Counted from the first letter of the stretch, positions 5,485-31,010 are shown. The stretch: DNA of 64,000 nucleotides from Oscillospiraceae bacterium (GCA_015064025.1 SVSZ01000001.1:1705-65704); one strand, 5' to 3'. The notes: generated by a model from the sequence alone, not told the origin. Numbers and translations: made by a program.

Positions 5485-8400
5485 TCAAATGACAAGTCTC
5501 AATACAGGCACCACCCCGGGTTTGTCGGAAGTGATAACCTCTCGAGAAGTAGCCCCGTTGTTGCCGACCACAGTCACCATTTGAGAAGAATCCTCCATAG
5601 GTGAACGAAGCCACCAAACTCCGTTACCGGTTTTACCGGTGAGCTTACTTGTATACGCTCCCTGTGACTGCGCGTAATCGGTGGACTTTTTCATTCTTGC
5701 AGCGTCAGTCCCCGACGCATCAGAGGAAAAGCCATAGTCACCATAGATCACATCCTGATGGGAAAGCAGGAATATCTTATCCTCCGTAGCTTCGCAAACG
5801 TAGGAATTTGAAATGCTGCCTGTACTTGTTATGCTGTTGTCTACCAAAGTTGTAAGTATGACCTTTTGCTGGAGACTGTCAAAGGCTGTATTCATGAAGG
5901 TCTCGTTGAGCCATTTCCTTATCGTACTGTAGGCATAATTGGAAGCATACGTATTGCTCGGCACTCCGTTTGAGGAATTATAAGATTCGTTCCCCACGGA
6001 AGAAGATACATTCTGGTACGCCTGCGCATCTATGATCATATCACAAATGACCAGTGCTGTGCCATTGGCGGTATCCTCACTAAGGATCGTCCAAGCAATC
6101 GGCTCATATTTGAACCAGTAGACCGTACTTTTAGAATAACCGTTTTCCGTCTGGGTCAGATTACGGGCGGAGGTGAAATACACACCTCGGTAGCGCTCTC
6201 CTCCCTCTGACACGTCAATATACCACATAAAGTTACTGACACTGCCGTTCAGATAATAGCCGTACGACGTCCATGCTCGCGAATTCGAGCTTGATGGAAG
6301 TGTACCTGCTTTGGTTGTAAGGGACCTGATCAGATCCCTATCGGTCACCTTACTTTGCGGATAGGTTCCGAAGTAGACGGTATTGCCGTCACGCTTCAAT
6401 CCGCAAACCGTGCAAATCCCCTCCACATAGTCGTGCTCATGTACGTCATTCGCAACCGACAGAGATGTGCCGCATACATCGCACGTTCCGTCCGAATCCA
6501 AATCGGCACATTCGCTGATTTTATCGCCACAATAATCGCAGATATGATTCTTATCATTGTCGGCACAATCACAAAGCTTGATCCGCAACGCAGGCACAAC
6601 GCCGATAGCGGTTAAGTAAACATTGCCTGTTTTGTTGACATAGCCGTTGGTTGCAACGTTGCGTACGTTCGTCCCGTTTGTATTATAAGGAGAACGGAGC
6701 CACCATTGACCGTAACCGTTTACACACATTGTTCCCTGTGCCTGTGCGTAATCGGTAGCTTTTCTGGACAAATTGTAAGCGATGTCTGCAGCTTCCAAGG
6801 CAGAGATCAGGAAGATCCGATCCTCGGTGTTTTCGCATGCGTGGGAATTCGCGCTGTATCCCGTGCTTGCCACACTGTTATCCACCGTCGTCACGAGAAT
6901 GAGCGATGCTTGCAGCTCGTTAAAGGCGGTCTCCATAAAGGTCTCGTTGAGCCACGTTCTTATCGTGCTGTACGCGTAATTGTTGGGATCCACCGTTTTT
7001 CCGCCCACCGTTCTCGTACCGCTGTCGGTGAGATAATACTCTTGCGAATCTATGATCATGTCGCACAGGATCATTGCAGTACCTTCGAAGGTGTCCTCGG
7101 AAACGATCTTCCAGGAGATCGGCTCATACTTAAACCAATACACCGTGCTTGTAAAATAACCGTTCTCATACTGATACGTGGTGGATTCCGAAGAGGCAGC
7201 CACCGTATACCACGGACGGTAAGACGAGAAATATACTCCTCGATACTTCTCTCCGCCCTCTTCAACGTCAATATACCACATAAAATTGCTGACGTTGCTG
7301 TTGATATAATAGCCGTAAGACGTCCACGCCTGCGAATTACTCTCTGTCGGAAGCGTCCCTGCTTTGGAATTGAGTGTACTCTTCAAGGCATCATCCGTTA
7401 CCTCACTCTGCGGATAGGAGCCAAAAGTGATCTTGTTACCGTTACGGTCGTACGGACGCTTGACACTGCAAAGCGTACAATAACCGTTTTCGTAAGTATG
7501 CCGCGTGAATTCTTCGCACTCTTCACAAATGTGATCCTTATTTGCATCAACACACTCTGTGATCACTGTGCCGCACACATCACAAGCATGATCGTGATCA
7601 GCGTCGGTACAATTACAAAGTCTGATCTGCAATGCAGGCACCACTCCAAGGCCTGCATTAAGCGAAGCGCTGGAAACCGTACCGTTGGGTTCTATGTTGC
7701 GCACGAAGCCGGCTTCACTGTTACCGGGTGAGCGGAGGAACCACCATACGTTTCCGTCGCTTGTATTCACATGTACGCCCTGTGCCTTTGCATAATCGGT
7801 AGCCGCTTTCCCCTGTGCGACAGCGCTGCCATTTGCTTCCTTGTAAGACAGCAGGAATATCTTATCGTGCGTATCCTCACATGCATAGGAATTTGTGGCA
7901 GTTCCGGTGCTTGCCGCACTGTTATCTACCGTCGTTGTGAGAATGTGCGATGCTTGCGCCTCATCAAAGGCGGTTCCTATAAAGCTTTCGTTAAGCCATG
8001 CTCTTACCGCGCTGTGCGCATAGTTGTTGGGATACACCGTTTCTCCGTTCAAGAGTCTGGTACCGCTGTTGGTGATATAGTACACCTGGGAATCCATGAC
8101 CGCGTCACACACGATCATCGCGGTACCGCCCGCAGTATCCTCGGAAAGGATAGTCCAGGCAATCGGTTCATACTTGAACCAATACACCGTACGTGTGGAA
8201 TAACCGTTATCATCCTGATACGTGTAAGCCGTCGACGAGGACTGCGACGGATTATAAGGACGGTAGTAGGTAAAATATACGCCCCTATATTTTTCGCCGC
8301 CGTCTTCTACGTCAATATACCACATGGTATGACTCACGTTACCGCCGATATAGTAGTTGTAAGACGTCCATTTTTGCGGAGTGTAAACCGTCGGAAGCTT

Positions 8401-10899
8401 CCCTGCTCTGGAGTTCAGCGTACTCTTCAGTGCCTCGTTCGTTACCTCGCTTTGAGGATAGGAGCCAAAGTATACGGTCCCACCGTCACGTGTAAATAAC
8501 GGCGGTTCTTCCTTTCCGCAAACTGTGCAACAGCCATCCTCATAAGCATGCGACGTGGTGGCATCGCACTCGTCACAATCATGATCTCTATCTGCATCTG
8601 TGCAGGCTGTGAGATGTTTTTTGCAGTAATCACAGAGGTGATCGCCGTCTCCCGTCGCATCGGAATGCGAACCAACGTCTCCCCCGCACTCGTCACAGTC
8701 GTGATCCCTGTTTGCGTCCGTGCAAGCAGTGAGCGTTTCTCTGCAGTAATCGCAGAGGTGGTCACCGTCGCCTGCGCTATCGGCATGAACGCCAATGGTG
8801 GCTTCGCACTCGTCACACTCATGATCCTTGCCTACGTCAACGCAATCACTTGCGTTTTCTCCGCAGTATTCGCAAAGATGATCTCCGTCGCCCTCTGCAT
8901 CCGAATGCGCACCGACAGGCTCTCCGCATTCATCGCAAACGTGATCCGTGCCCGGATCTGTACAAGACGTGAGCGTTGCTCTGCAGTAATCACAAAGGTG
9001 GTCACCGTCGCCTGTGCTATCGTCATGATCACCAACGGTTCCTTCGCACTCGTCACAAACATGATCCTTGCCTATGTCAACGCAATCACTTGCGTTTTCT
9101 CCGCAGTATTCGCAAAGATGATCTCCGTCGCCCACTGCATCCGAATGCGAACCGACGTTCGCATTGCAATCGTCACAGTGGTGGTCCGTGTCTTCGTCTT
9201 CACAACCCGTAAGGGTTTCTCCGCAGTGATCGCATACGTGATCACCGTCGCCCGCTGTATCGGTGTGACTTCCAAAGCTCTCACCGCACTCGTCACAGGA
9301 GTGGTCCGTGTCTGCGTCTGTGCAAGCTGTGAGCGGTTCTCTGCAGTAATCGCAGAGGTGGTCTCCGTCGCCTGCGCTATCTTCATGCACACCCACGGGC
9401 TCTTCGCACTCATCACACTCATGATCCTTGCCTACGTCAACGCAATCACTTGCGTTTTCTCCGCAGTATTCGCAAAGATGATCTCCGTCATTTGCACGGT
9501 CTGAATGTATTCCGACGTTTTCACCGCACTCATCGCAGTCGTGATCCGTGTTTGCGTCTGTGCAAACGGTAAGGGTTTTTCTGCAGTAATCGCAGAGGTG
9601 GTCACCGTCGCCCACCGCATCCGTATGATCTCCCATCTCAGCGCCGCAATCGTCGCAGTCGTGGTCCTCGTCTTCGTCTTCACAAACAGTGAGGGTTTCT
9701 CCGCAGTGATCGCATACGTGGTCACCGTCACCCGCAGCATCGGTGTGACTTCCAAAGCTCACACCGCACTCGTCGCAGGAGTGGTCCCTGTTTGCGTCCG
9801 CACAAGCAGTGAGCGTTTCTCTGCAGTAATCGCAAAGGTGGTCGCCGTCGCCCACAGTATCGGCATGAACGCCAACGTTTCCTTCGCACTCATCACACGT
9901 GTGATCTTGATTCACATCCGTACAAGCAGTTGCACTTTCATTGCAATATTCGCAAAGATGATCTCCGTCATTTGCAAGGTCTGCATGTATTCCGACGTTT
10001 GCACCGCACTCGTCGCAGTCGTGATCCCTGTCTGTGTCTGCGCAAACAGTGAGTGTTTCTCCGCAGTGATCACAAACGTGGTCACCGTCGCCCGCAGCAT
10101 CGGTATGCCTTCCGACCAACACACCGCACTCATCGCAACCATGGTTTCGATCCGCATCAACACATCTTGTCAAGGGCTCTCTGCAATAATCGCAGACGTG
10201 GTCACCGTCCCCCACAGTATCTGCATGAACACCAACGTTCGCACCGCATTCATCACAGTCATGATCTGTATTCCCGTCAATACAACCGTTCACGTTTTCT
10301 CCGCAATATTCGCAAAGATGATCCCCGTCGCCCGTTGCATCCTCATGCACGCCGACGCTCGCACCGCACTCATCGCAGCCATGGTTTCGATCCGCATCAA
10401 CACAGCTTGTCAAGGGCTCTCTGCAATAATCACAGTCGTGATCGCCGTCATTCGCAATATCCGTATGATCTCCTACGTTCCCATTGCAAGCATCACAGGC
10501 ATGATCGTTATTCGCATCGGTATGAATACAGGCATATTCACACTTCAAGCAAACACCGTTCACCCACTCGTGCGGCTCCTCCGCTACGGCAATGGTGTCA
10601 CAGCAAGTATACGTCTTCTTATGTACGGTTTCATTTTTTGTCCAAACAGCCTCATTTGCATGGTTGTTGGCGTTAAAATCCCCGTAAGCCTCTCCGCATG
10701 CGGTGCAAACGGCATGGTCGTTACAGGTTGCGGTGCCTCCCGCATGAGAGCAGGATGCTCCGCTGTCTCCACTGTCATCGCCTTGCGAATTCTGCTCGCC
10801 GCGATCTCCCGTATGATCGTGTGAAGGTTCCTGTGTGCAGGACGAAAAGACACCGACCAACATCAAAAGAGCCAACACAAGTGCTAAAAACCGTTTCAA
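5485..10899 (-). CDS. Giant lipoprotein: Asp/His/Cys-rich 40-aa tandem repeats plus three DUF6273-like modules
   Basis: The ORF is open to 10917. The likely start is TTG 10899, 8 nt after GGAGG, giving MKRFLALVLALLMLVGVFSSC (lipobox). There are 16 copies of the unit GDGDHxC[DE][YH]Cx5CxDx3DHxCD[ED]Cx5HxD. Three modules follow, each with FG[ST]YPQS, YRGVYF, VYWFKYEPI, WLRSP and GVVP[AV]L. Confidence 0.9.
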   Translation of the reverse strand: MKRFLALVLALLMLVGVFSSCTQEPSHDHTGDRGEQNSQGDDSGDSGASCSHAGGTATCNDHAVCTACGEAYGDFNANNHANEAVWTKNETVHKKTYTCCDTIAVAEEPHEWVNGVCLKCEYACIHTDANNDHACDACNGNVGDHTDIANDGDHDCDYCREPLTSCVDADRNHGCDECGASVGVHEDATGDGDHLCEYCGENVNGCIDGNTDHDCDECGANVGVHADTVGDGDHVCDYCREPLTRCVDADRNHGCDECGVLVGRHTDAAGDGDHVCDHCGETLTVCADTDRDHDCDECGANVGIHADLANDGDHLCEYCNESATACTDVNQDHTCDECEGNVGVHADTVGDGDHLCDYCRETLTACADANRDHSCDECGVSFGSHTDAAGDGDHVCDHCGETLTVCEDEDEDHDCDDCGAEMGDHTDAVGDGDHLCDYCRKTLTVCTDANTDHDCDECGENVGIHSDRANDGDHLCEYCGENASDCVDVGKDHECDECEEPVGVHEDSAGDGDHLCDYCREPLTACTDADTDHSCDECGESFGSHTDTAGDGDHVCDHCGETLTGCEDEDTDHHCDDCNANVGSHSDAVGDGDHLCEYCGENASDCVDIGKDHVCDECEGTVGDHDDSTGDGDHLCDYCRATLTSCTDPGTDHVCDECGEPVGAHSDAEGDGDHLCEYCGENASDCVDVGKDHECDECEATIGVHADSAGDGDHLCDYCRETLTACTDANRDHDCDECGGDVGSHSDATGDGDHLCDYCKKHLTACTDADRDHDCDECDATTSHAYEDGCCTVCGKEEPPLFTRDGGTVYFGSYPQSEVTNEALKSTLNSRAGKLPTVYTPQKWTSYNYYIGGNVSHTMWYIDVEDGGEKYRGVYFTYYRPYNPSQSSSTAYTYQDDNGYSTRTVYWFKYEPIAWTILSEDTAGGTAMIVCDAVMDSQVYYITNSGTRLLNGETVYPNNYAHSAVRAWLNESFIGTAFDEAQASHILTTTVDNSAASTGTATNSYACEDTHDKIFLLSYKEANGSAVAQGKAATDYAKAQGVHVNTSDGNVWWFLRSPGNSEAGFVRNIEPNGTVSSASLNAGLGVVPALQIRLCNCTDADHDHACDVCGTVITECVDANKDHICEECEEFTRHTYENGYCTLCSVKRPYDRNGNKITFGSYPQSEVTDDALKSTLNSKAGTLPTESNSQAWTSYGYYINSNVSNFMWYIDVEEGGEKYRGVYFSSYRPWYTVAASSESTTYQYENGYFTSTVYWFKYEPISWKIVSEDTFEGTAMILCDMIIDSQEYYLTDSGTRTVGGKTVDPNNYAYSTIRTWLNETFMETAFNELQASLILVTTVDNSVASTGYSANSHACENTEDRIFLISALEAADIAYNLSRKATDYAQAQGTMCVNGYGQWWLRSPYNTNGTNVRNVATNGYVNKTGNVYLTAIGVVPALRIKLCDCADNDKNHICDYCGDKISECADLDSDGTCDVCGTSLSVANDVHEHDYVEGICTVCGLKRDGNTVYFGTYPQSKVTDRDLIRSLTTKAGTLPSSSNSRAWTSYGYYLNGSVSNFMWYIDVSEGGERYRGVYFTSARNLTQTENGYSKSTVYWFKYEPIAWTILSEDTANGTALVICDMIIDAQAYQNVSSSVGNESYNSSNGVPSNTYASNYAYSTIRKWLNETFMNTAFDSLQQKVILTTLVDNSITSTGSISNSYVCEATEDKIFLLSHQDVIYGDYGFSSDASGTDAARMKKSTDYAQSQGAYTSKLTGKTGNGVWWLRSPMEDSSQMVTVVGNNGATSREVITSDKPGVVPVLRLVI
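8520..10540 (-). repeat. In-frame 120-bp tandem repeat array (16 units) inside the giant lipoprotein gene
   Basis: The 60-nt blocks starting at 8821, 9061 and 9421 are identical except for one C/T. Their spacing is a multiple of 120 bp. Confidence 0.9.
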
Positions 10900-10983
10900 A
10901 TCAAATTCCTCCATCACACTAAAAATTCAAATGAGATATCCGAGGGAATGATATCAAATACGCGGGGATTCCGCGTATTCGTT

Positions 10984-17518: not shown

Positions 17519-17547
17519 TTGACAAACAGAGCCTTTTGCGGTATAAT
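17519..17547 (+). promoter_or_regulatory. rnpB promoter
   Basis: Perfect TTGACA (17519-17524), 17 nt, TATAAT (17542-17547). Confidence 0.85.
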
Positions 17548-17550
17548 AAG

Positions 17551-17905
17551 GCGTAGCTTCGTTAAACGGTCGCGCGGTATGTTGCCGTAAGGTATTACCG
17601 TGAGGAAAGTCCGGGCTTCACAGGACAGGATAACTGATAACATCAGCCACGGGTAACCGTCGGGAAAGTGCAACAGAAATAAACCGCCGCCTATGCGGTA
17701 AGGATGGAAAGGCGAGGTAAGAGCTCACCCGTTCCTATGGTAACATAGGTCCGCTGTAAACCCTATCCGAAGCAACACCCCGTGAATTGCTCGTCCGGCA
17801 TATATTCGGGGGTGGCACGAAACCTCGGTTTCGAAGCTTCGCGGTGACGCGGAGCGAAGATTGATGACCGTTCACGACAGAACCCGGCTTACAGACGAAG
17901 CTATC
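17551..17905 (+). ncRNA. rnpB: RNase P RNA, bacterial class A
   Basis: P4 strands GAGGAAAGTCCGGGC and ACAGAACCCGGCTTA. GGTAAGAGCTCACC element. P1 pairing TAGCTTCGT / ACGAAGCTA. Ends are accurate to a few nt. Confidence 0.93.
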
Positions 17906-17947
17906 AAAAAAGCTGCCGCAAGCGAAAACCGTTTGCGGCAGCTTTTT
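17906..17947. terminator. Bidirectional terminator after rnpB
   Basis: aaaaa-AGCTGCCGCAA...TTGCGGCAGCT-ttttt. Confidence 0.85.
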
Positions 17948-17985: not shown

Positions 17986-18933
17986 CTATTCAAGTACAGT
18001 CTCTAAGCGGTACACCTCTAAGTACAGTTCGTGTCCGTAGTACGGTTGTATGGTTTTTTCGGCGTACAGCATAATCCCTTGCTTGGTTGCATACAAGTAA
18101 AAATCTGTATTGTCTTCTGTCTGGTCCTTGTTGTAACCGGCAATTTTTCGCCGCAAAAAATCCACGTCAATGCTTTCCAGATCCATATTGCGATTCCAAT
18201 AATGAATCCCAACAACATCACCGTTTTCTTTAAGTGAAACAATGAGGCGTTCCCCGGTATACACTTCACCAACGTAAATATCGTAACGAAGACCATATTG
18301 AAGAACACGCTCGGAAGAATCCTCGGGAACATAAAAACCGTCGTAACGCGTCCCCCCCACCATATACGTATAGCAAGAAAGGGTATACTTCTCAGGATGC
18401 CAACCGTATATATACTTCTCCATATACGTCTCCACCCATTCCACATATGCCTTAGAATCTGTCGGTGAAACGGGATTTCTTGCAATAGGATCATCTTCGC
18501 AACTTAACCGAAATGAAGTGTCATCCGGAGAAAGCCAAAGCTCTCCCCACCCGTTCTCTTGCTCATAGAAATCCCATGAATAATCGTAAGACGGATACTC
18601 TTTCGTTCTTTTGTATTCAAACCGATAGCTCTTTGAGCCAAAAATGAAGTTTACAGATTTGTCCATTCCTTCTTTCGTCTTTATTACACTATCGGGTCCT
18701 TGAGGCATCAAACGCCAAACGTTGCCTCGGACAAATTTGCATGGTTCCACAGGAGAGGAGGGTGGTTGGGATGGATCGACCGTCACGGTAAGGTCTTCAT
18801 TCATACTCGGATCGTTACCTTGCGTTTCGAGCAATGTGTCCGAGCTTCGGATTTCATTTTCGCAGGAAAGTATCGAAGCAGACAAGGCAAGCAAAAGAAG
18901 CAGACACAACATTCGCAAAAGCTTATTTTTCAC
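17986..18933 (-). CDS. Lipoprotein of unknown function
   Basis: Likely GTG start 18933, 5 nt after GGAGGG, giving VKNKLLRMLCLLLLLALSASILSC (lipobox). No motif I recognise. The ORF extends to 18954. Confidence 0.7.
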   Translation of the reverse strand: MKNKLLRMLCLLLLLALSASILSCENEIRSSDTLLETQGNDPSMNEDLTVTVDPSQPPSSPVEPCKFVRGNVWRLMPQGPDSVIKTKEGMDKSVNFIFGSKSYRFEYKRTKEYPSYDYSWDFYEQENGWGELWLSPDDTSFRLSCEDDPIARNPVSPTDSKAYVEWVETYMEKYIYGWHPEKYTLSCYTYMVGGTRYDGFYVPEDSSERVLQYGLRYDIYVGEVYTGERLIVSLKENGDVVGIHYWNRNMDLESIDVDFLRRKIAGYNKDQTEDNTDFYLYATKQGIMLYAEKTIQPYYGHELYLEVYRLETVLE

Positions 18934-18950
18934 ACTGCACCCTCCGTTTC

Positions 18951-21900
18951 TCAATTAAACGTTGCATTGACATTTCCGGCAATATAAGGATCTATGGTTG
19001 TATTATTCTCACCATAAACCTCATTCATTTTAAGATCAACCGCTTCACACGCTTCCTTTACTGTCTTTCCTGCTTCTAATTCCGCGAAGAAATATTCACA
19101 CCAATCATTCATTTGATTTGAAAGCACACTCAACTCAAACCCTATAACTACTTTCGCCCCCTTAGCATGCGTTGCGTTTACGAGATTATTGGAATCCTCC
19201 CTGCCCTCACCGGTCGAACACGCACCGTAAATAATCAAATCTATATTGGACAGGGCATCGTTCGGCAAACTTTGAAGCATAGATATATTTATTGGTTCAT
19301 TGGATGTTTCAATCCCGGTTTGAAAACCGTGTGTTCTGACAACAACAATTTCCGATTTTGTCATGTGATTGAGCAAGAAATTTTCATTCATACAAGTTTG
19401 TTTTGCATAAATATCCGTATATCCCATAGCTTCAAGATTTCCTATAACGGATGAATAAAACTTTGTACGATTATAAGCTTCGGGAATTGATATGATAGAA
19501 ACCTCATGATCAATTTCAATCAACCATTCATCAAGCGTATTACTATCCTGTGGATCCGCTAATTGCACCAAATCCACTCCACTTGAGGTGCTATTATACG
19601 GTAACGAAAGCGCCATTCCGCTTGCTTCCGAGCATTTTGGAACAAAGCGATAATTTCCACCATCTGTAATTTGCAGCTTCCACCTTCCGGCGTCACTAAC
19701 AGTGGACATTTGTACAATGGAAGCTCCGCTTGCAGTAGATCCGTTGGCAACGGAAACATATTTTGATGAATACAAAGATTTAATTGTATAATATCCGAGA
19801 CCAACATGATTAAAAACCCACTTTGCTTGAGGGCTCGTATGATATGCCCACTGTTGAATCCGCGCCGAATCCGCAGTTGACGGTCCCTCCACATCCATGT
19901 ATCTTTGAGAAGAAATATTTTGTACATGATACGTTCCGCTCGGTATGACTTGACCTACCATAATAGAAAATTTGTATTGATAATCGTTGTCGCCACTATC
20001 AGTAACAATAATATTGGTATACCCGTGCCCAACGCCTGTGATGCGACCGCTTGCATCAACTGTTGCAACATCGGTATTCTCGCTTTTCCAATGATGGGAG
20101 CTATTTGTTTTCCATGTCGCGTTGCTAGGTTGTACGGAAAGAGTAGGTGTATGAGAAGCACCTACAGCCATCCACGTCAACGTATCCGAGGCGGCTCTTG
20201 AAGTAGATTGCACCTCGATGATATTGTTTGCAAGTTTAGTCAGATACCATACGGTTTGGTTATAGCTTGATGAACTTGAGCTTTGTGCAGACATCATTCC
20301 CAATTCAAGTGCACTATCATTTTGAAGGTATGTAAGCACTTTGCTGTTGGCTTTGTTTTTTAAAATTGCGCCTCCGCCGGTTGCATAAGAAATCTGCCAA
20401 TGAAAGCCCGTATTCGCCTTATCATATCTTTTCAACTTCGAATCCTTATAAACGGCATATGTTGTCTTCCAATATGGGCGTATTACATAGCCAAGGGTAT
20501 CACGATATTCTATAATCCAACAACCACTTTCGTTCACTGACGATTGAAAGGTTGTTTCTGGTTCCGTTAACGAATCTCTTTTTTGAAGTTTCGAAATGTA
20601 AGTCCCCAAAACCTTGTTGCGTATTGTGTAATGTCCTCCAATATCACTTGTGACAATTTCAAGATATACGTTGCTATTCCCGGTGGCTTCCGTTGAATAA
20701 ATCGCACCTTCGTCTATCAAGTCCTCCGTTTGGCTCAATGCAAAACCATTTCTGGGGTTATTTTCTGCATTTGAAGTCGCGCCTGTATTGTACTTGGCCC
20801 ACCCGCGAACAATGTCGGTAACATCCATACTAAATGTATCACCGTATGTTACAACAACATTCGATGACACTCCGTCTGTGGTTGAGGCACCAGAAAACAA
20901 AGTGGAATTATTCACTGCAATTTGGGATTCATAATTTTGAGAAGATTGTACCATGGGATGTATATTCATTTGGGAGCGAATCTGTGCAACAGGAGTAAAA
21001 GAGACAGTCGCTCTTCCAATTTGATAGGGATTTAGGCTTTTAAACTGTCCTTGTGTCCCATAGAAATCGTAAAACTTATAAATAACCTTTCCTTGCCCCT
21101 CGGATAGGTTATGTTGTGACGAGTTAGATAATGCATAATTGTACAAAGAGCTGTTATTATAAAGTCCAATATCAATAATTGCATCGTATTCCGTATAAAC
21201 AGGTTCGCTTCCTTCATAAGTAACGTAAGAATTTTTCTCATTCACTATCACTGTCGGATCCACAAAAACAGGATATACAGTGTCCGCTGCTTTTAAAAAT
21301 GCCGCAGGAACGGTAATTAACATGGTATAACCGCCAGTGGCATTTTCCGTTATATCCAAATCACCGTATGCTGTTTTTCCGTTACTATCTTCGATGAGTA
21401 TTTTTTCAAAGTCGAACAGAAAATTTCCCTCCTCATCCAAAAGCCGCCATTCACCTTGTTCGGTTTTTATTGGAGCCAATCCAGAGGTTGTCAAAAGAAA
21501 TCTGAAGGAATATTTTCCGATATTTGACATTAAAACAATATCTTCTTTTATTCCTGAAAGTTGCGTTTGATATCTCAAAGCCGTGTTTGCACCAAATACT
21601 CCATTATAAACTATACTCTTTCCATCCGCACCAAGCTTCACAGGAGAAACAATGAGCGAGTTTTCCGGTTTCATGGACATAGAGTGATTTTCAAACGATA
21701 TCATAATACCGTTGGAAGCATTATTTCCAAAATATGCACTAAAACTATTTTCGGTCATTGCGTACGAATATCCTGCAAGTCCTGTTTCGGAAATACTCGT
21801 GTTCTTATCTCTGATTTCTCCATCAGATGTTATGTATTTTACAGGCTTATCGTATACGTATGAGGTTTTTGAACCATTTTGATTTTGATAAATTACAGTT

Positions 21901-21986
21901 TGTAAACTCTTCTCTTGCGCAAATAAACGATTAACGTGTCCCTTTTCAATTGTCTGTTCCAAGCTTACAGTTTCAGGTCTTGACAC
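18951..21986 (-). CDS. DNRLRE / ricin lectin / Big_2 / ricin lectin / CHAT-like (caspase-fold) protein; body of an interrupted gene
   Basis: YPVFVDPT; MDVTDIVRGWAKYNTG (DNRLRE-type); VATVDASGRITGVGHGYTNIIVT (Big_2); IQQWAY, GRWKL, DEWLI (ricin QxW-type). The C-terminus has IVVVRTHG ... LIIYGACSTGEG ... AKGAKVVIGF. Confidence 0.7.
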   Translation of the reverse strand: MSRPETVSLEQTIEKGHVNRLFAQEKSLQTVIYQNQNGSKTSYVYDKPVKYITSDGEIRDKNTSISETGLAGYSYAMTENSFSAYFGNNASNGIMISFENHSMSMKPENSLIVSPVKLGADGKSIVYNGVFGANTALRYQTQLSGIKEDIVLMSNIGKYSFRFLLTTSGLAPIKTEQGEWRLLDEEGNFLFDFEKILIEDSNGKTAYGDLDITENATGGYTMLITVPAAFLKAADTVYPVFVDPTVIVNEKNSYVTYEGSEPVYTEYDAIIDIGLYNNSSLYNYALSNSSQHNLSEGQGKVIYKFYDFYGTQGQFKSLNPYQIGRATVSFTPVAQIRSQMNIHPMVQSSQNYESQIAVNNSTLFSGASTTDGVSSNVVVTYGDTFSMDVTDIVRGWAKYNTGATSNAENNPRNGFALSQTEDLIDEGAIYSTEATGNSNVYLEIVTSDIGGHYTIRNKVLGTYISKLQKRDSLTEPETTFQSSVNESGCWIIEYRDTLGYVIRPYWKTTYAVYKDSKLKRYDKANTGFHWQISYATGGGAILKNKANSKVLTYLQNDSALELGMMSAQSSSSSSYNQTVWYLTKLANNIIEVQSTSRAASDTLTWMAVGASHTPTLSVQPSNATWKTNSSHHWKSENTDVATVDASGRITGVGHGYTNIIVTDSGDNDYQYKFSIMVGQVIPSGTYHVQNISSQRYMDVEGPSTADSARIQQWAYHTSPQAKWVFNHVGLGYYTIKSLYSSKYVSVANGSTASGASIVQMSTVSDAGRWKLQITDGGNYRFVPKCSEASGMALSLPYNSTSSGVDLVQLADPQDSNTLDEWLIEIDHEVSIISIPEAYNRTKFYSSVIGNLEAMGYTDIYAKQTCMNENFLLNHMTKSEIVVVRTHGFQTGIETSNEPINISMLQSLPNDALSNIDLIIYGACSTGEGREDSNNLVNATHAKGAKVVIGFELSVLSNQMNDWCEYFFAELEAGKTVKEACEAVDLKMNEVYGENNTTIDPYIAGNVNATFN

Positions 21987-21989
21987 ATC

Positions 21990-22238
21990 TTACGGTTCAA
22001 GAGACTGCAATTGTGAAAGAGGGAGTTCTCCTTCTCCAAGAGTAAAAAGTAGATTTTCATCAACCAAAGAAACTGAATTTGTAGCAGTATTTGCATCTAT
22101 CACTACTGTTGTCGAATCATTTAAAGTCTGGTCGGCAGCTACAACTGAAAGCGATGCAGAAAGGATCAATAACGTAACGCAAAGAAATGCAGATACAATT
22201 CTAAGCCACTTCATTTTCAATGTATACGATTTTTTCAT
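21990..22238 (-). CDS. Signal-peptide fragment in frame with the downstream 1,011-codon ORF
   Basis: AAGGAG RBS. MKKSYTLKMKWLRIVSAFLCVTLLILSASLSVVAADQ... It ends at TAA 21992-21990, and the same frame continues. Confidence 0.7.
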   Translation of the reverse strand: MKKSYTLKMKWLRIVSAFLCVTLLILSASLSVVAADQTLNDSTTVVIDANTATNSVSLVDENLLFTLGEGELPLSQLQSLEP

Positions 22239-22288
22239 AGCAATATGTCTCCTTTTCAAAAATGTTTTTTCGGTTCCAAAAAACACTT

Positions 22289-22348
22289 TTGGCGCATAGG
22301 CAACCGGAACCGCACATACGCAAATTAATTTAAGCCTATGCGCGCCAA
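22289..22348 (-). promoter_or_regulatory. Terminator-like / attenuator hairpin in the 5' leader of the cassette
   Basis: Arms 22348-22334 and 22301-22289 give 14-15 bp with a 2-nt bulge and a 32-nt loop. TGTTTTTTGG follows on the minus strand. Confidence 0.6.
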
Positions 22349-22407
22349 AGCAGCAAGAGCATACGGGGGCATATGCAGAACAACGTTATTACACAACATT
22401 TTTTCAT
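22336..22407 (-). CDS. 23-codon Cys-rich mini-ORF (candidate leader peptide)
   Basis: AGGAGG, 8 nt, then ATG. The peptide is MKKCCVITLFCICPRMLLLLWRA. The TAG stop lies inside the 5' arm of the hairpin. Too short for the ORF track. Confidence 0.5.
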   Translation of the reverse strand: MKKCCVITLFCICPRMLLLLWRA

Positions 22408-22483
22408 AACAAATACCTCCTCTTATCGTATTTTTGAAAATCACGAGCAGATTTTATTCACTATGCGCATGATTTTCACCATT

Positions 22484-22537
22484 ATTATATCAAAAATTGG
22501 TCACTTTGTCAAGGCTGTGTTTTGGTCAACTTGTCAA
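22484..22537 (-). promoter_or_regulatory. Consensus promoter with two 16-nt direct repeats
   Basis: On the minus strand: TTGACA (22512-22507), 17 nt, TATAAT (22489-22484). The repeats are TTGACAAGTTGACCAA (22537-22522) and TTGACAAAGTGACCAA (22512-22497). Confidence 0.75.
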
Positions 22538-22591: not shown

Positions 22592-22662
22592 CATTTAGCC
22601 GGTAGAAATTACGTTTTAAAGGCTGTCCTCTGCAAAAATCTTTGATGCAGCTTTTTGTTATT

Positions 22663-24075
22663 TTATTTTACTTCAAGAGCACTTTCAACACTTTCATTTC
22701 CCTTTTCAAAGGTAACGGAGCCCGCGGCGCTGACCGTTTCGACGGAGGTGCAACCGCGGAACGCCTCAGCCTCCACCGTCCGCACACCGCCGAGATCGAT
22801 CTCGGAAAGGGCGGAGCACCCCGAAAACGCGGATGCGGGAAGCACGGAAAGGCTTTGGGGCAGAACGACCCTTTCAAGTGAATCACAATTCATAAAGGCA
22901 TTGATTCCCATGGAAGAAAGACCTTTTCCGAAATCCACGGACACAAGCCCGTCACAGGCGAGAAAGGCGTTCTCACGTAAGGTCTTCAGCGAATTGGGAA
23001 GGACGACGGTGTAGAGCGCGTCACAGCCATAAAAGGCGCGGATACCGATCTCTGTAAGTCCCTCGGGAAGCACGACCTCACGCAGGCTCTTGCACTCGTA
23101 AAACGCATTGGTACCAAGTGTGCGGCATACGGGAAGCAACGTCACGCGCGAGAGAGAGAAAGGATAGTAACCTTCGGAAAAATCTGCGTATCTTGCACCG
23201 AATACGTACCCAAGATAGGTATTTTCCGTTTTCGTTCCGCCGACAAAGGGCAGGGTCATCTCCCGCAGGGCAATGCTCCCCTCAAGAGCGGCGAATTCGA
23301 TCTTTTCAAGCGCGTCACCAAAGGAAATTTTGGTGAGAGAGGTACAGTAGGACAAGGCATGCTCACCGACGAAGGTAAGCCCCTCCAGCCCTTCGATCAC
23401 CTCGAGAGACGCGCATTTTGTGATGGAAAACTTCTCAAGCCTTTCAAGGGACGAAGGCAGTGAAAGCGTGACCAGATCGTTACAGTCGTAAAGCGCGTAT
23501 GCGGGTAGGACGGTCATGTCTCCCGTCAAACGAAGATGCGCAAGACTTGCGGGAATGTCCAGCGGATTGTCTTCAAATCTCTCGGCGCCGAACAGCGTTC
23601 CGAGGAAGCAGTCCCCCTCCCCGTTCTTCCCCATCACGGGCGTTTCCAAGGCAAGAAGGCTCTTGCATCCCGCAAGGATCTCCTTCCCAACGCTTGTAAC
23701 GCTTTCGGGAATCACCAGCGCCTGAAGCGCCGTAAGATCACGAAAGGCACCGTCTCCGATCGCGACCACGGGCAAGCCCTCAATGCTTTTCGGAATCGAG
23801 ATCACCGTTGCGTCACCCGTATATCCCGTTACGGTGACCCCCTTTGCGTTCTTCGTGTAGGTCAGCGCCTCCGTCTCTGTGCTCTGTGTATCCAGAAGCG
23901 CCGATATCTCCTCGGTATAATCGGGCAAGCTCACAGGCTCCTCCGGGGTCGTATCGATCGGTGCGTCGCTCGTCGGCGTTTCGGGCTCGGCAGTCGGCAC
24001 CGCCGTACAGGAAACAAGCATGAGGAGGCACAGGAGCGTGCTGACGATATATATAAGAATACTCTTTCGATGCAT
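22663..24075 (-). CDS. BspA-type leucine-rich-repeat lipoprotein
   Basis: Start ATG 24075 gives MHRKSILIYIVSTLLCLLMLVSC (lipobox). Repeated I/VPxSVxxIGxxAFxxCxxL units follow. The ORF extends to 24390. Confidence 0.85.
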   Translation of the reverse strand: MHRKSILIYIVSTLLCLLMLVSCTAVPTAEPETPTSDAPIDTTPEEPVSLPDYTEEISALLDTQSTETEALTYTKNAKGVTVTGYTGDATVISIPKSIEGLPVVAIGDGAFRDLTALQALVIPESVTSVGKEILAGCKSLLALETPVMGKNGEGDCFLGTLFGAERFEDNPLDIPASLAHLRLTGDMTVLPAYALYDCNDLVTLSLPSSLERLEKFSITKCASLEVIEGLEGLTFVGEHALSYCTSLTKISFGDALEKIEFAALEGSIALREMTLPFVGGTKTENTYLGYVFGARYADFSEGYYPFSLSRVTLLPVCRTLGTNAFYECKSLREVVLPEGLTEIGIRAFYGCDALYTVVLPNSLKTLRENAFLACDGLVSVDFGKGLSSMGINAFMNCDSLERVVLPQSLSVLPASAFSGCSALSEIDLGGVRTVEAEAFRGCTSVETVSAAGSVTFEKGNESVESALEVK

Positions 24076-24250
24076 AACGTATTCCCTTTCTTCATATAGT
24101 TTACGGTTTATTGTACCATAAAAAGGCGCGCTGTGCAAGAGGAGTTTGCGATAATTTGCAATTATTTCAAATCCTTCACGCTTTCTTCTTGTAAAGTACG
24201 CAAAAACGTGGTACAATATTGTAAATACAGCAAACAGGGAGGAGGATCTT

Positions 24251-25216
24251 ATGCAAATCATTGCAGAGGGCGCGCTTGTCGGAATGTGCGTTCGTGACGT
24301 ATTGAAAAAACACCTCTCCCTTTCCACAAAAATGATGAAATACCTCAAATATGAAAACAACGGGATCGAGGTCAACGGAAAGCACTGCACGGTACGTTAT
24401 GTTCTTTGCAAGGGCGACGTGCTCACGGTCAGTACACAGGATCGGGAATCCTCCCCTGCGGTGGAGGCTGTTGATCTTCCCCTGGATATCCTCTATGAGG
24501 ATGACGAGCTTGTCGTTCCCGCCAAGGGAGCAAATATGCCGACGCATCCCTCGCATGACCATCACAGCGACACCGTAGCAAACGCGCTTGCTTACCGTTA
24601 TCTCAAAAGCGGAACGCCCTTCGTTTTCCGTCCCATCAACCGCCTTGACCGTAACACAAGCGGACTTTTGCTTATCGCGCGGAATAAGCGTACGGCGGCA
24701 CTGCTCACGCGTCAGCTGCAATCGGGCAACATTCGAAAGACCTATCTTGCTGTGCTTGACGGTGAAATGGAAACGGAGGGAGGCATCATTGATGCATGTC
24801 TTCACCGCACGCCCGAGAGCATCATCGTCCGCGAGGTCTGCCCACCCGACGCGCCCGACGCAGCCCCCGCAAGAACCGAATACACGGTGCTTTCCACGGG
24901 AAACGGGCATACGCTGGTGCTCGCTCATCCCATCACGGGGCGCACCCATCAGCTCCGCGTACATTTTTCGCACCTGGGCTATCCCATCACGGGAGACAAC
25001 CTTTACGGGACCCCCTCCCACCACATCGGGCGGCATGCGCTCCACGCATATGCCCTTTCCTTTTCACATCCGATCAGCGCATCTCCCATGCAGCTTTGCG
25101 CGCCGTTACCGCAGGATATGCAGGATTTGATCGCTCTTTTCTTCCCGAACTCACTCATGGAGGTATTGAATGAACACAGCCGAGAAAAGGAAGCACCGTC
25201 TTCCTCTCTTTTGTAA
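24251..25216 (+). CDS. RluA-family pseudouridine synthase with S4-like N-terminus
   Basis: HPSHDH..., NRLDRNTSGLLLIARN, GRTHQLRVH. Confidence 0.9.
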   Translation: MQIIAEGALVGMCVRDVLKKHLSLSTKMMKYLKYENNGIEVNGKHCTVRYVLCKGDVLTVSTQDRESSPAVEAVDLPLDILYEDDELVVPAKGANMPTHPSHDHHSDTVANALAYRYLKSGTPFVFRPINRLDRNTSGLLLIARNKRTAALLTRQLQSGNIRKTYLAVLDGEMETEGGIIDACLHRTPESIIVREVCPPDAPDAAPARTEYTVLSTGNGHTLVLAHPITGRTHQLRVHFSHLGYPITGDNLYGTPSHHIGRHALHAYALSFSHPISASPMQLCAPLPQDMQDLIALFFPNSLMEVLNEHSREKEAPSSSLL

Positions 25217-28941: not shown

Positions 28942-30405
28942 TTATTTTAATCTTGGGAATTCCCCTTCAATCAAACACCAAATGTCGGTATCCCATTCCA
29001 TTCGATTTGAATAGAAATCAATTTTTTTAAAATCATCAATATGGGCAGGTGTACCGTTTTTAACAATCTCATTTCCCACAACAACTTGGGTATTTGAATA
29101 ATAACATGAAACAACTTCATTCTGAGACGGTATTATCGAACCGGCTTCACCTTCTTGTAAAATAACATCACCGACGGTCCAACAATGACTAATATTATTA
29201 TATCCTGTTCCAAAAAGCCCACCGGAACCAAGCAACCCTCCTGCATATCCGGAACTACTGCATATCTCAATATCACCGGTTGTATAACAATTTTTCACAG
29301 CAGAAGCAGAAATTCCAATCAGCCCGCCCGCTGTAATCGTACCCGTCCCATTTTGCGAATTGCTTATTTTTACTTCTGAATAGCAATTTTGAACTGTTGT
29401 TAAATTTCCGGAAGACTCTCCTATAAGACCTCCGATTCGAGCAGAAAAAGCCTTAGGTTGTTTTGATGGCACCACTGACGATACTGAAAAATCTATTATA
29501 CCTTGAGAATAACTAGTCTCGATAGGTTTATTTCCTGTATAGTACCCTGCCAAACCACCTAACCATTGACTCGAACCGCCGTTTTCGTGCGTAGCATCAT
29601 AATATGCATTAATAGATACATCAGACGAGCAATGCGCTATCCCGCCCGTACTTCCGGCGACTCCGCCAATGAAAAATTCTTTTCCAAAGGACAAATTTAT
29701 TTTCCCTTCCACAGAACAATTTTCAATACCGCCTGTATTTTCAGCTACAAGCCCCCCTACATAAACAGTTCCGTATTCGGTTGAATCTATATCAATAAGG
29801 AGACCGGTGATATTTAGATTTTCTATTTTCCCTTCTGCATAGCCAAAAAGCCCCGCCCATGATACGTCATATTCTCGTATCTGATTCTTTTCTTTTTTTA
29901 GCGATTTTTCAGTCAGCAGAACGTTTGAAACGGTATAACCATTTCCATCAAACCATCCGGAAAATACCGTTCTGGGTGTAGCACCAATGGGAGTGATCGA
30001 ACGATTATTCATATCAATATGATTTGCCAGTGAAATTTTTACACCCGCAAGATCAGAACCGCCATTCACTATATCGATCAATCCCGCGAATTGTTCCGCC
30101 GTAGAAATAACGAAATCCAATTCTATGACACTATACCATGATGTATCGCTCTCACCACTCCACAATGAACAATTACAGATTGAGCAAATATTATCGACAT
30201 AATTATGTGTAGAACAAAACTGCTCATGACCATTCAAATCATTGCTCATATCTAAATTTGAGATTTCCTCATTGGCATCTTTATTCGAATCGCTCTCTTC
30301 GGTTATAATACTATTTTTATGATTCAAAGCGTTTGACGTGCTATCGCATGCAATCATGGAAAATAACAAAAGTACTGTAAAAGCAAGTGCAAAAATCTTT
30401 TTCAT
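28942..30405 (-). CDS. GLUG-motif repeat lipoprotein
   Basis: GGAGG RBS. MKKIFALAFTVLLLFSMIAC (lipobox). Repeats GGLVAENTGGIENC, GGVAGSTGGIAHC, GGLIGESSG..VQNCY, GGLIGISASAVKNCY and GGLLGSGG. Low-GC region. Confidence 0.8.
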   Translation of the reverse strand: MKKIFALAFTVLLLFSMIACDSTSNALNHKNSIITEESDSNKDANEEISNLDMSNDLNGHEQFCSTHNYVDNICSICNCSLWSGESDTSWYSVIELDFVISTAEQFAGLIDIVNGGSDLAGVKISLANHIDMNNRSITPIGATPRTVFSGWFDGNGYTVSNVLLTEKSLKKEKNQIREYDVSWAGLFGYAEGKIENLNITGLLIDIDSTEYGTVYVGGLVAENTGGIENCSVEGKINLSFGKEFFIGGVAGSTGGIAHCSSDVSINAYYDATHENGGSSQWLGGLAGYYTGNKPIETSYSQGIIDFSVSSVVPSKQPKAFSARIGGLIGESSGNLTTVQNCYSEVKISNSQNGTGTITAGGLIGISASAVKNCYTTGDIEICSSSGYAGGLLGSGGLFGTGYNNISHCWTVGDVILQEGEAGSIIPSQNEVVSCYYSNTQVVVGNEIVKNGTPAHIDDFKKIDFYSNRMEWDTDIWCLIEGEFPRLK

Positions 30406-30484
30406 TTTTTCCTCCAAAAAATAACCATTAATAAAAGCACAACCAAATCATAAAATCACAATTCAAAATGTCTGTGCTTTTAAT

Positions 30485-30513
30485 ATTTTAACCTATTTCG
30501 GGTTAAATGTCAA
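30485..30513 (-). promoter_or_regulatory. Promoter of the GLUG lipoprotein gene
   Basis: On the minus strand: TTGACA (30513-30508), 17 nt, TAAAAT (30490-30485). Confidence 0.6.
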
Positions 30514-30521
30514 TAACCTAA

Positions 30522-30557
30522 AACAGATTATTCTATAATATTTAAAAATAATCTGTT
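30522..30557. promoter_or_regulatory. Operator-like inverted repeat around the XRE gene -10 box
   Basis: AACAGATTATT (30522-30532) and AATAATCTGTT (30547-30557) form a perfect 11-bp inverted repeat. The 14-bp spacer contains TATAAT (30534-30539). Confidence 0.6.
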
Positions 30558-30567
30558 GGAGCTAAAA

Positions 30568-30780
30568 ATGAAATATTCAAGAATTCGTGATCTAAGAGAA
30601 GATAGAGATATCAACCAAACTCAAATTGCCAAAATGTTGGGGATGTCACAAACCGGATATTCGAAATATGAAACGGGCGAAAACGACATCCCAACTTCGA
30701 TTTTGATAAAGCTCGCAAGATTTTACAACACAAGCATTGATTATTTATTGGGAGAAACAAACGATCCAAAAAGGCATTAA
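30568..30780 (+). CDS. Small XRE-family HTH regulator
   Basis: MKYSRIRDLREDRDINQTQIAKMLGMSQTGYSKYETGENDIP. GGAG lies 7 nt before ATG 30568. Confidence 0.85.
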   Translation: MKYSRIRDLREDRDINQTQIAKMLGMSQTGYSKYETGENDIPTSILIKLARFYNTSIDYLLGETNDPKRH

Positions 30781-30839
30781 CAAAAAAGTATCCCGAACAC
30801 AAAAAACAAGCTCGGAATTCTAAAAAAGTCTTGACTTCA

Positions 30840-30881
30840 GCGCAAAGCACATATTTTCAAGCGCCAAGCACATATTTTCAA
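30840..30881 (+). repeat. 2 x 21-bp tandem direct repeat upstream of the tRNA promoter
   Basis: GCGCAAAGCACATATTTTCAA followed by GCGCCAAGCACATATTTTCAA (one mismatch). Confidence 0.9.
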
Positions 30882-30888
30882 AATATAC

Positions 30889-30918
30889 TTGACAAACAAT
30901 TGCGTTCGATGTTATAAT
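30889..30918 (+). promoter_or_regulatory. tRNA-Ala promoter
   Basis: TTGACA (30889-30894), 18 nt, TATAAT (30913-30918). Confidence 0.75.
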
Positions 30919-30934
30919 AGTAGCGTTCAAGCAT

Positions 30935-31010
30935 GGGCTTGTAGCTCAGTTGGGAGAGCGCTGCGTTCGCAACGCAGAGGTCATGGGTTCGAATCCCACC
31001 AGGTCCACCA
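30935..31010 (+). tRNA. tRNA-Ala (anticodon CGC), CCA encoded
   Basis: I folded the cloverleaf by hand. Acceptor stem GGGCTTG/CAGGTCC carries the G3:U70 alanine identity pair. Anticodon loop is TTCGCAA. T-arm is ATGGG-TTCGAAT-CCCAC. Confidence 0.93.

Follow-up and report, generated by a model that had tools for sequence, protein, structure and literature searches.

A probable two-gene polymorphic-toxin cassette of an Oscillospiraceae bacterium, with a nonsense codon between signal peptide and clan CD peptidase protein and an intact putative immunity lipoprotein gene

Caspase-like domains at the C-terminus of Sec-exported polymorphic toxins, named 'Tox-Caspase' domains, were predicted by Zhang et al. 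2012 (PMC3482391). In Gram-positive bacteria, the domain order DNRLRE, DUF6531 and RHS is the WapA architecture of polymorphic toxins (PMC12704120). Here we analysed a locus that resembles both systems. It is located in a 64,000-nucleotide stretch of DNA from an Oscillospiraceae bacterium (GCA_015064025.1 SVSZ01000001.1:1705-65704); this whole stretch is called the window below, and positions are counted from its first letter. Our analysis suggests that positions 17986-22512 on the minus strand are probably a two-gene polymorphic-toxin cassette, whose toxin gene has been pseudogenised or disabled for export and whose second gene, encoding a putative immunity lipoprotein, is intact. No literature on this toxin family was found in our search. 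The features of the locus are collected in Table 1.

The toxin gene is present as two open reading frames (ORFs), a leader and a body. In the NCBI annotation they are separate hypothetical proteins, MBE6588552.1 (leader, E7643_00095) and MBE6588551.1 (body, E7643_00090), and these two are one disrupted gene. The leader ORF, with AAAGGAGA directly 5′ of its ATG at 22238, can be aligned with the N-termini of uninterrupted relatives; given the TAA that ends it, its product consists of the signal peptide and 48 linker residues. Past the TAA the frame reads D-V-S-R-P-E-T, and the body ORF of 1,011 codons runs on the minus strand from a GTG at 21986, 3 nt after the TAA, to a TGA at 18953-18951. A hypothetical read-through product of leader and body would have 1,095 aa. 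The initial annotation of this DNA had described a secreted protein split from its signal peptide by a single in-frame TAA, and we reproduced the ORF ends, the continuation of the frame and the read-through length. Its further statement, that one nonsense codon uncouples the protein from export, also agrees with our results, as the TAA proved to be real and the leader with the signal peptide is severed from the body. No Shine-Dalgarno sequence was found upon a search 5′ of the GTG at 21986. The body ORF contains no second lesion and its catalytic residues are kept. This indicates that the TAA mutation is recent, or that the body is still constrained.

Exact protein look-up located the 82-aa leader ORF in 8 contigs, which stem from at least 7 samples (four from JGI and three from ENA), and in each contig bearing the exact leader the body ORF was called 3 nt after it. 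The seven contigs retrieved all matched the window at 100.000% identity, with GAACCG-TAA-GATGTG at this site. The sample accessions were 3300031555, 3300032167, 3300018475 and 3300024270 in JGI, and ERZ27248436, ERZ27248306 and ERZ27248446 in ENA; the ENA assemblies may partly reuse JGI reads, and the independent read sets number more than one. No match was found upon exact look-up of the 1,011-aa body protein, and in a collection of 15 billion proteins we found no allele of ≥ 90% identity that lacks the interruption. The DNA pattern around the TAA gave no match in the genome or metagenome contig collections, a result that does not mean absence, because exact copies exist according to the protein look-up.

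The nearest relatives obtained by protein search (P0002-P0013; 34-42% identity, 1,089-1,135 aa) are uninterrupted at the column of the TAA. Comparison with these relatives showed E, D, N or L where the window has the stop codon, for example EDVARPET and EDVPRPET in relatives vs a stop followed by DVSRPET in the window. A change from GAA to TAA would be the simplest single change. Since seven samples share the identical TAA, a base-call error, which the initial annotation had kept as an alternative, is excluded for practical purposes, as is an assembly error. An artefact of sequencing, assembly or consensus, with a real gene intact at 1,095 codons, would fit the uninterrupted state of all relatives at 34-42% identity, the lack of a second lesion in the body and the origin of the source sequence from a metagenome-assembled genome. 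However, the TAA was present in seven contigs from seven sample accessions that are otherwise 100% identical, and the lesion is a substitution and not a homopolymer indel, so that we regard such an artefact as extremely improbable. Stop-codon reassignment or recoding was also rejected, because TAA terminates 17 out of the 36 long ORFs of the window and is the commonest genuine stop codon there. A slippery repeat at the TAA site was rejected as well, the lesion being a substitution; the frameshifts seen in relatives lie in runs of 3-4 bases.

The initial annotation had assigned the end of the body to the clan CD peptidases on the order and spacing of a His and a Cys. Fold, motif and profile agreed on this assignment. 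The AlphaFold model of the C-terminal 191 aa (pLDDT 92.4, pTM 0.90) placed the His-Gly pair after strand 60-64 and the Cys after strand 97-101, and these aligned with the tHG and aC of the CHAT structure 8rot. Foldseek search of this domain against the PDB returned 73 matches at E ≤ 1e-3. Among the matches listed, 50 out of 50 belonged to clan CD and none was a non-peptidase fold; the best were SAVED-CHAT (E 3.9e-10), Csx29/TPR-CHAT, gingipain R, Kgp, caspases 3 and 7, separase and legumain. Gingipain R gave a TM-score of 0.70-0.75 against the domain model, with a root-mean-square deviation of 3.5 Å. The Pfam CHAT family (PF12770) scored 23.8 bits with the whole protein, just under its 24-bit gathering threshold, and 28.0 bits with the domain scanned alone, in profile positions 134-268 of 289 only, which are the catalytic half.

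Fourteen homologous C-terminal domains, 17-52% identical to that of the window, share only H66, G67, C103, N114 and G123 with it (H66, G67 and C103 in domain numbering are H886, G887 and C923 in ORF numbering). Of these 14 domains, 8 matched CHAT, 2 matched Peptidase_C25 and 1 matched C50 in a Pfam scan. A profile search against 1.84 billion cluster representatives found 3,318 proteins at E ≤ 1e-3, and in all of the 150 best of these 3,318 the domain was located at the extreme C-terminus, in proteins of about 120-1,200 aa. These results support a clan CD fold for the C-terminal domain, with proteolysis as its predicted activity. An intracellular defence system of the CHAT type was considered and rejected, as the locus had no PADLOC match and its protein includes both a signal peptide and lectins.

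It could be argued that the clan CD domain serves as a peptidase for autoprocessing or release, or is a binding module without activity, and that the lectin-rich body is the effector. In polymorphic toxins, the majority of caspase-like domains are releasing peptidases (PMC3482391), and the present domain is compact, with 190 aa and the partial coverage of the CHAT profile given above. However, it is the very last domain of the protein, a position in which the same study gives caspase-like domains a toxin function. It also fills the slot that is occupied in relatives by TNT, M23, M12, papain-like or lipase domains, has its own co-varying downstream partner, and keeps the catalytic H, G and C invariant. 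We therefore give the releasing-peptidase or binding role very little credence.

Our search found 232 matches to the toxin family among GTDB species genomes, and we assembled a set of 89 proteins, drawn from the window, from 8 metagenome loci and from 80 loci in GTDB genomes. Relatives retain the leader, both N-terminal domains and the lectin modules. Their C-termini differ, with about 30 C-terminal classes among the 69 proteins that are complete. Of the 89, 21 carry the clan CD domain. One relative ends in a TNT NAD-glycohydrolase and is followed by an Imm63 immunity gene. One class has a PGAP1-like lipase domain and adjoins an RHS gene, another has YkzU with relaxase, MobC and transposase genes as neighbours, and further classes carry papain-like Peptidase_C39_2/C70, M12 reprolysin-like or M23 peptidases. 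Proteins with the order DNRLRE, DUF6531 and RHS begin with the same first N-terminal domain. A fixed scaffold with interchangeable C-termini and a co-varying downstream gene is the pattern of polymorphic toxins, and it supports this assignment, from which we infer toxicity. The initial annotation had proposed either a glycan-targeted extracellular protease or a polymorphic-toxin-like effector. The latter is the better supported of the two, by the swapping of C-termini, the pairing of TNT with Imm63 and the co-variation of the downstream gene.

That downstream gene, which encodes an intact lipoprotein, is absent from the initial annotation and is key to the toxin-immunity interpretation. Its product has the lipoprotein signal sequence ...LLLLALSASILS-C, with the lipobox Cys in ALSASILS-C. 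No Pfam family, no PADLOC match and no match to any Imm family was found for the window lipoprotein, and a word-index homology search with it returned only itself. We assembled its family from the downstream ORFs of related loci with an iterated profile seeded with the window protein. The lipobox Cys is invariant in 16 aligned members of this family, each with a hydrophobic stretch before it. In 4 out of 4 clan CD relatives examined, a lipoprotein gene of 293-412 aa was located 13-25 nt past the toxin stop. The iterated profile matched the downstream ORF at 17 out of 20 clan CD loci vs 0 out of 49 other loci (Fisher p = 1.9e-13), and BLAST links among downstream proteins joined members of one C-terminal class in 34 cases and members of different classes in 3. 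Because the gene tracks the clan CD domain in this way, the lipoprotein is likely the cognate immunity or inhibitor protein of that domain. TNT, a cytoplasmic toxin, is paired with the cytoplasmic Imm63, and the peptidase-type toxins mostly occur with lipoproteins or membrane proteins.

Seven out of the 16 lipoprotein family members matched DUF4901 (YcdB/YcdC repeat, PF16244; best E 4.6e-5), but the window lipoprotein did not match it at E ≤ 1. One member weakly matched the FTP motif (thermolysin propeptide). With the lipoprotein profile, matches in the PDB were confined to signal-peptide regions. A literature search on DUF4901, or on CHAT together with a lipoprotein and a polymorphic toxin, found nothing specific. 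The lipoprotein partner of P0002 has a tandem TESTE(A/V)P linker repeat, and two samples differ in the copy number of this repeat (L001:6276-7514, 412 aa, vs L002:5418-6698, 426 aa).

These data bear on another interpretation, in which the family consists of modular secreted enzymes and the window protein is a lectin-targeted protease for host or dietary glycoproteins or for the cell's own surface, with the lipoprotein as a dedicated substrate, chaperone, anchor or pro-domain-like regulator and not as an immunity protein. Its ricin, Big_2 and CBM96-like modules are of kinds typical for carbohydrate-active and surface proteins, peptidases make up many of the alternative C-terminal domains, and the relation to DUF4901 with the weak likeness to an FTP propeptide would suit an inhibitor by which the cell regulates its own protease. 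Gingipains and clostripain, which are secreted clan CD enzymes, act on host or surface proteins (PMC3482391). However, the same scaffold bears TNT with Imm63 behind it, which is a classic pair of toxin and immunity protein, and its N-terminal domain is common to RHS/WapA toxins. The one-for-one swapping of C-terminal domain and downstream gene, the low GC content and the mobile-element neighbours are hallmarks of conflict systems and not of metabolism. We consider the secreted-enzyme interpretation unlikely.

Some points weigh against the polymorphic-toxin cassette that we prefer. The many combinations of lectins with peptidases would be compatible with secreted degradative enzymes as well, and the lipoprotein is not homologous to any immunity family described so far. 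The clan CD loci tend to be closer relatives, so the co-variation could partly be vertical inheritance of an operon; however, clan CD proteins of 650-1,350 aa with differing middle regions still have the lipoprotein. Except for the TAA, the body ORF shows no damage at all, and the gene may still have a use. All exact copies represent one clone, from which an on/off polymorphism in the population cannot be assessed.

Under the polymorphic-toxin reading, the ancestral product of the first gene, as judged from relatives, would have been a Sec-exported protein about 1,095 aa long. Its order would have been signal peptide, WapA-like N-domain, DNRLRE/CBM96-like jelly roll, degenerate beta-trefoil, Big_2, ricin-type lectin and clan CD peptidase. 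The N-terminal, lectin and Ig modules would carry the protein and target it to cell-surface glycans, and the C-terminal 190-aa His/Cys peptidase would be the toxin, in the slot of the other toxin domains of relatives. The second gene would provide a membrane-anchored lipoprotein of a divergent DUF4901-related family, found only behind toxins of the clan CD type, and this lipoprotein may bind and block the peptidase on the outer side of the producing cell's membrane. A block outside the membrane would imply that the target of the toxin is extracellular or in the cell envelope, such as cell-wall or surface substrates. The nonsense mutation at codon 83 would stop translation after the signal peptide and linker. 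The body would at best be made by weak re-initiation at GTG 21986; such a product would have no signal peptide and would stay in the cytoplasm, and we thus infer that the toxin is not exported. The lipoprotein gene, intact and with its own Shine-Dalgarno sequence, would leave the locus in a state of 'lost weapon, kept shield'.

Lesions of the leader were also seen in other members of the family. In six members including the window gene, the signal peptide is severed from an otherwise open body, by a nonsense codon in three and by a 1-nt frameshift in three (Table 1). Only three lesions were found in the remaining ~92% of the gene (in L064, L047 and L016). Thus 6 out of 9 lesions fall within ~8-10% of the gene length (binomial p = 2e-5 to 6e-5), a count made post hoc on a collection of loci that favours long intact bodies. 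L013, the closest GTDB relative, has a split lipoprotein gene too (L013:9203-10306; ORFs of 127 aa and 224 aa), so that toxin and partner are both decaying. We take the clustering of lesions in the leader as a lead and not as a finding.

This clustering might mean that the leader break is a recurrent, selected or regulated 'export-off' state in gut Clostridia and not plain decay. Re-initiation at the GTG 3 nt past the TAA could keep the 3-kb body translated and protect the transcription of the immunity gene against polar effects; or else a low level of read-through or frameshifting could yield rare producers. The five further independent relatives with leader lesions, compared with three lesions elsewhere, and the intact body and catalytic residues in the window are consistent with such a state. 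However, the ascertainment of loci by long intact matches and the post hoc count detract from the first of these. The lesions differ in position and kind, and they share no conserved signal for recoding. Of the stop codons TAA is the most efficient, the GTG lacks a Shine-Dalgarno sequence, and the broken lipoprotein gene of L013 resembles ordinary decay. A regulated export-off state is, in our judgement, decidedly unlikely.

The order of domains in the body was described in the initial annotation as an N-region, a DNRLRE-type domain, two trefoil lectins separated by a Big_2-like domain, and the peptidase-like domain. Our profile scans confirmed RicinB_lectin_2 at aa 672-820, Big_2 at aa 602-664 and CHAT at aa 869-989 of the body ORF, but the first trefoil (aa 450-600) falls below the RicinB_lectin_2 cut-off of 25.6 bits. 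Relatives match Beta-tre_PLH30 at this first trefoil. Both trefoils are called lectins from profile scores, and sugar binding is predicted. The motifs quoted in the initial annotation were present, namely YPVFVDPT (21275-21252), THG with the His-Gly pair, and GAC with the Cys.

The N-terminal 449 aa had no Pfam or NCBIfam match, and a profile search of PDB sequences with this region found nothing. Its AlphaFold model (20 homologues, pLDDT 89.6) consists of two all-beta domains, and pro-TGF-beta prodomain jelly rolls were the sole confident matches of the model in the PDB upon Foldseek search. A catalytic N-terminal region was rejected on these results: the PDB profile search was empty, Foldseek gave only beta-sandwich/pro-TGF-beta-like folds, and no Pfam family matched. 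The first beta-sandwich domain is common to WapA/Rhs-type toxins of Listeria, Brevibacillus, Bacillus and actinomycetes.

As for the second domain, the DNRLRE label of the initial annotation is weakly supported. DNRLRE (NF033679) and CBM96 (PF24517) gave no match at E ≤ 1 in the window protein, and NF033679 gave none at E ≤ 0.1 in 10 relatives. However, in distant relatives (Listeria, Brevibacillus, actinomycetes) a strong DNRLRE/CBM96 domain (E 1e-30 to 1e-38) stands right behind the first domain, at the same position as the second domain here. A comparison by hhalign of the N-region profile with four true DNRLRE domains gave a weak match (probability 29.9%, E 5.6e-4), in which the motifs PMT.TW, DIT.IVRGW and NGF.L line up. 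Weak matches to TGFb_propeptide were also found in the distant relatives that bear DNRLRE. We therefore treat aa 250-449 tentatively as a divergent DNRLRE/CBM96-like jelly roll, whose membership is unproven.

Table 1. Features of the toxin-lipoprotein locus in the window, and leader lesions in related loci (in the last five rows, positions are those of the respective locus; aa refer to the body ORF)
Feature	Position	Strand	Remarks
Leader ORF, 82 codons	21993..22238	minus	Sec-type signal peptide (MKKSYTLKMKWLRIVSAFLCVTLLILSASLSVVA, then ADQ) and variable linker; begins MKKSYTLKMKWLRIVSAFLCVTLLILSASLSVVAADQ...
In-frame TAA nonsense codon	21990..21992	minus	codon 83
N-terminal beta-sandwich domain, aa 1-245	21252..21986	minus	motifs HVNRL, KEDIVL, YPVFVDPT; pLDDT 89.6
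Second beta-sandwich domain, aa 250-449	20640..21239	minus	motif DVTDIVRGWAKYN...NGFAL; tentatively a divergent DNRLRE/CBM96-like jelly roll
Degenerate beta-trefoil, aa 450-590	20217..20639	minus	RicinB_lectin_2 20.9 bits, E 5.8e-4
Big_2 / Ig_Eae-type Ig-like domain, aa 602-664	19995..20183	minus	Big_2 33.5 bits
Ricin-type beta-trefoil, predicted lectin (PF14200 / PF00652), aa 672-820	19527..19973	minus	RicinB_lectin_2 108.9 bits, E 2e-31
Clan CD (CHAT/gingipain/caspase-like) cysteine peptidase domain, aa 821-1011	18954..19526	minus	fold, motif, profile
Candidate catalytic residues His886-Gly887	19331-19326	minus	invariant in homologues
Candidate catalytic residue Cys923	19220-19218	minus	invariant in homologues
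Intact lipoprotein gene, 315 aa	17986..18933	minus	GTG 18933, GGAGG 7 nt upstream; 17 nt past toxin stop
Promoter-like site	22484..22512	minus	TTGACA, 17-nt spacer, TG-extended TATAAT; 12/12 consensus matches; upstream of toxin operon
Terminator-like hairpin, 13 bp, of upstream LRR gene	22592-22561		just before promoter-like site
Hairpin, 18-nt arms, 94% complementary, A5/T5 flanks	17907..17947		likely bidirectional terminator of toxin-lipoprotein operon and rnpB
rnpB, RNase P RNA gene (RF00010, 231.7 bits)	17554-17907	plus	convergent with toxin-lipoprotein operon
Perfect -35/-10 promoter-like site next to rnpB	17519-17547		consensus match
Leader lesion, L013 (closest GTDB relative, 48% identity)	6079-6081		in-frame TAA inside signal peptide; P0004 has Gln
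Leader lesion, L055	~5857		in-frame TAG just past signal peptide
Leader lesion, L040	~5990		1-nt frameshift
Leader lesion, L054	~5850		1-nt frameshift
Leader lesion, L009 / P0049 (TNT toxin)	~5000-5025		1-nt frameshift

The cassette has 39-44% GC vs 51% in the rest of the window, and at nearly all clan CD loci compared the toxin gene is below its flanks in GC. The low-GC cassette abuts rnpB, a stable-RNA gene, and stable-RNA genes are a common landmark for island insertion. It is bracketed by an imperfect 23-nt direct repeat (17925-17947 and 22634-22656, 78% identity). The copy at 17925-17947 is the 3′ arm of the terminator hairpin, and the repeat may be due to chance or be a remnant of an insertion boundary. 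Just upstream, at 22663-24390 on the minus strand, is a BspA-type leucine-rich-repeat (LRR) surface protein (LRR_5, E 1.6e-65); JGI calls this ORF with 470 aa, so that the 575-aa start is probably too early. A second low-GC patch (28942-31010, 35-40% GC), with a 491-aa GLUG-motif protein and tRNA-Ala(CGC) at 30935-31010, may be acquired. Two giant ORFs are on the minus strand, one of 1,810 aa with three DUF6273 stretches (5485-10917) and one of 1,423 aa with no Pfam match (50446-54717).

The family represented by this locus is sizeable and uncharacterised. It would consist of polymorphic toxins that bear lectins and are exported by Sec, in uncultured Clostridia from the guts of ruminants and other animals. 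Its lipoproteins could represent clan CD protease inhibitors of a new class. They would also point to a target outside the cell or in its envelope, which is unusual for caspase-like toxins, and the locus itself may be a clean example of toxin loss with retention of the immunity gene.

Compared with known systems, the locus is similar to the Tox-Caspase toxins (PMC3482391) in export by Sec/signal peptide, in the conserved N-terminal trafficking region followed by an interchangeable C-terminal toxin, in the caspase-like H/C peptidase as the last domain, and in the co-variation of the next downstream gene. However, those toxins were found mainly in Bacteroidetes, Gammaproteobacteria and Actinobacteria and not in gut Clostridia, their partners are Imm36 or Imm57 instead of a lipoprotein of 290-410 aa from a putatively DUF4901-related family, and their carriers are of RHS, filamentous or PVC type, where the present protein has lectin and Ig modules. 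With WapA and the Gram-positive Rhs toxins (Streptococcus suis WapA, PMC12704120; the Listeria and Brevibacillus loci L091 and L084) the window protein shares the Sec signal peptide, an N-terminal beta-sandwich ending in YPVxIDP, a following domain in the DNRLRE position, and polymorphic C-terminal toxins. It differs from them in that it lacks DUF6531, the RHS/YD shell and the Rhs-associated core and has beta-trefoil lectins and Big_2 instead, and in that its domain in the DNRLRE position is too divergent to match NF033679.

The CHAT proteases (PF12770; SAVED-CHAT 8tl0, Csx29/Craspase 8eey) gave the best structural and sequence matches to the C-terminal domain, with His-Gly and Cys aligned. 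They are intracellular, signal-activated proteins of defence or signalling with large regulatory domains, whereas the domain described here is a minimal one of 190 aa that ends a secreted lectin protein, has no PADLOC match and covers the catalytic half of the profile. Gingipains (C25), which gave the highest TM-scores, are likewise secreted bacterial clan CD enzymes fused to Ig-like/adhesin modules. However, their catalytic domains are of about 350 aa, and they are host-directed enzymes of Bacteroidota that use the type IX secretion system and carry an N-terminal pro-domain, where the window toxin has a separate lipoprotein partner.

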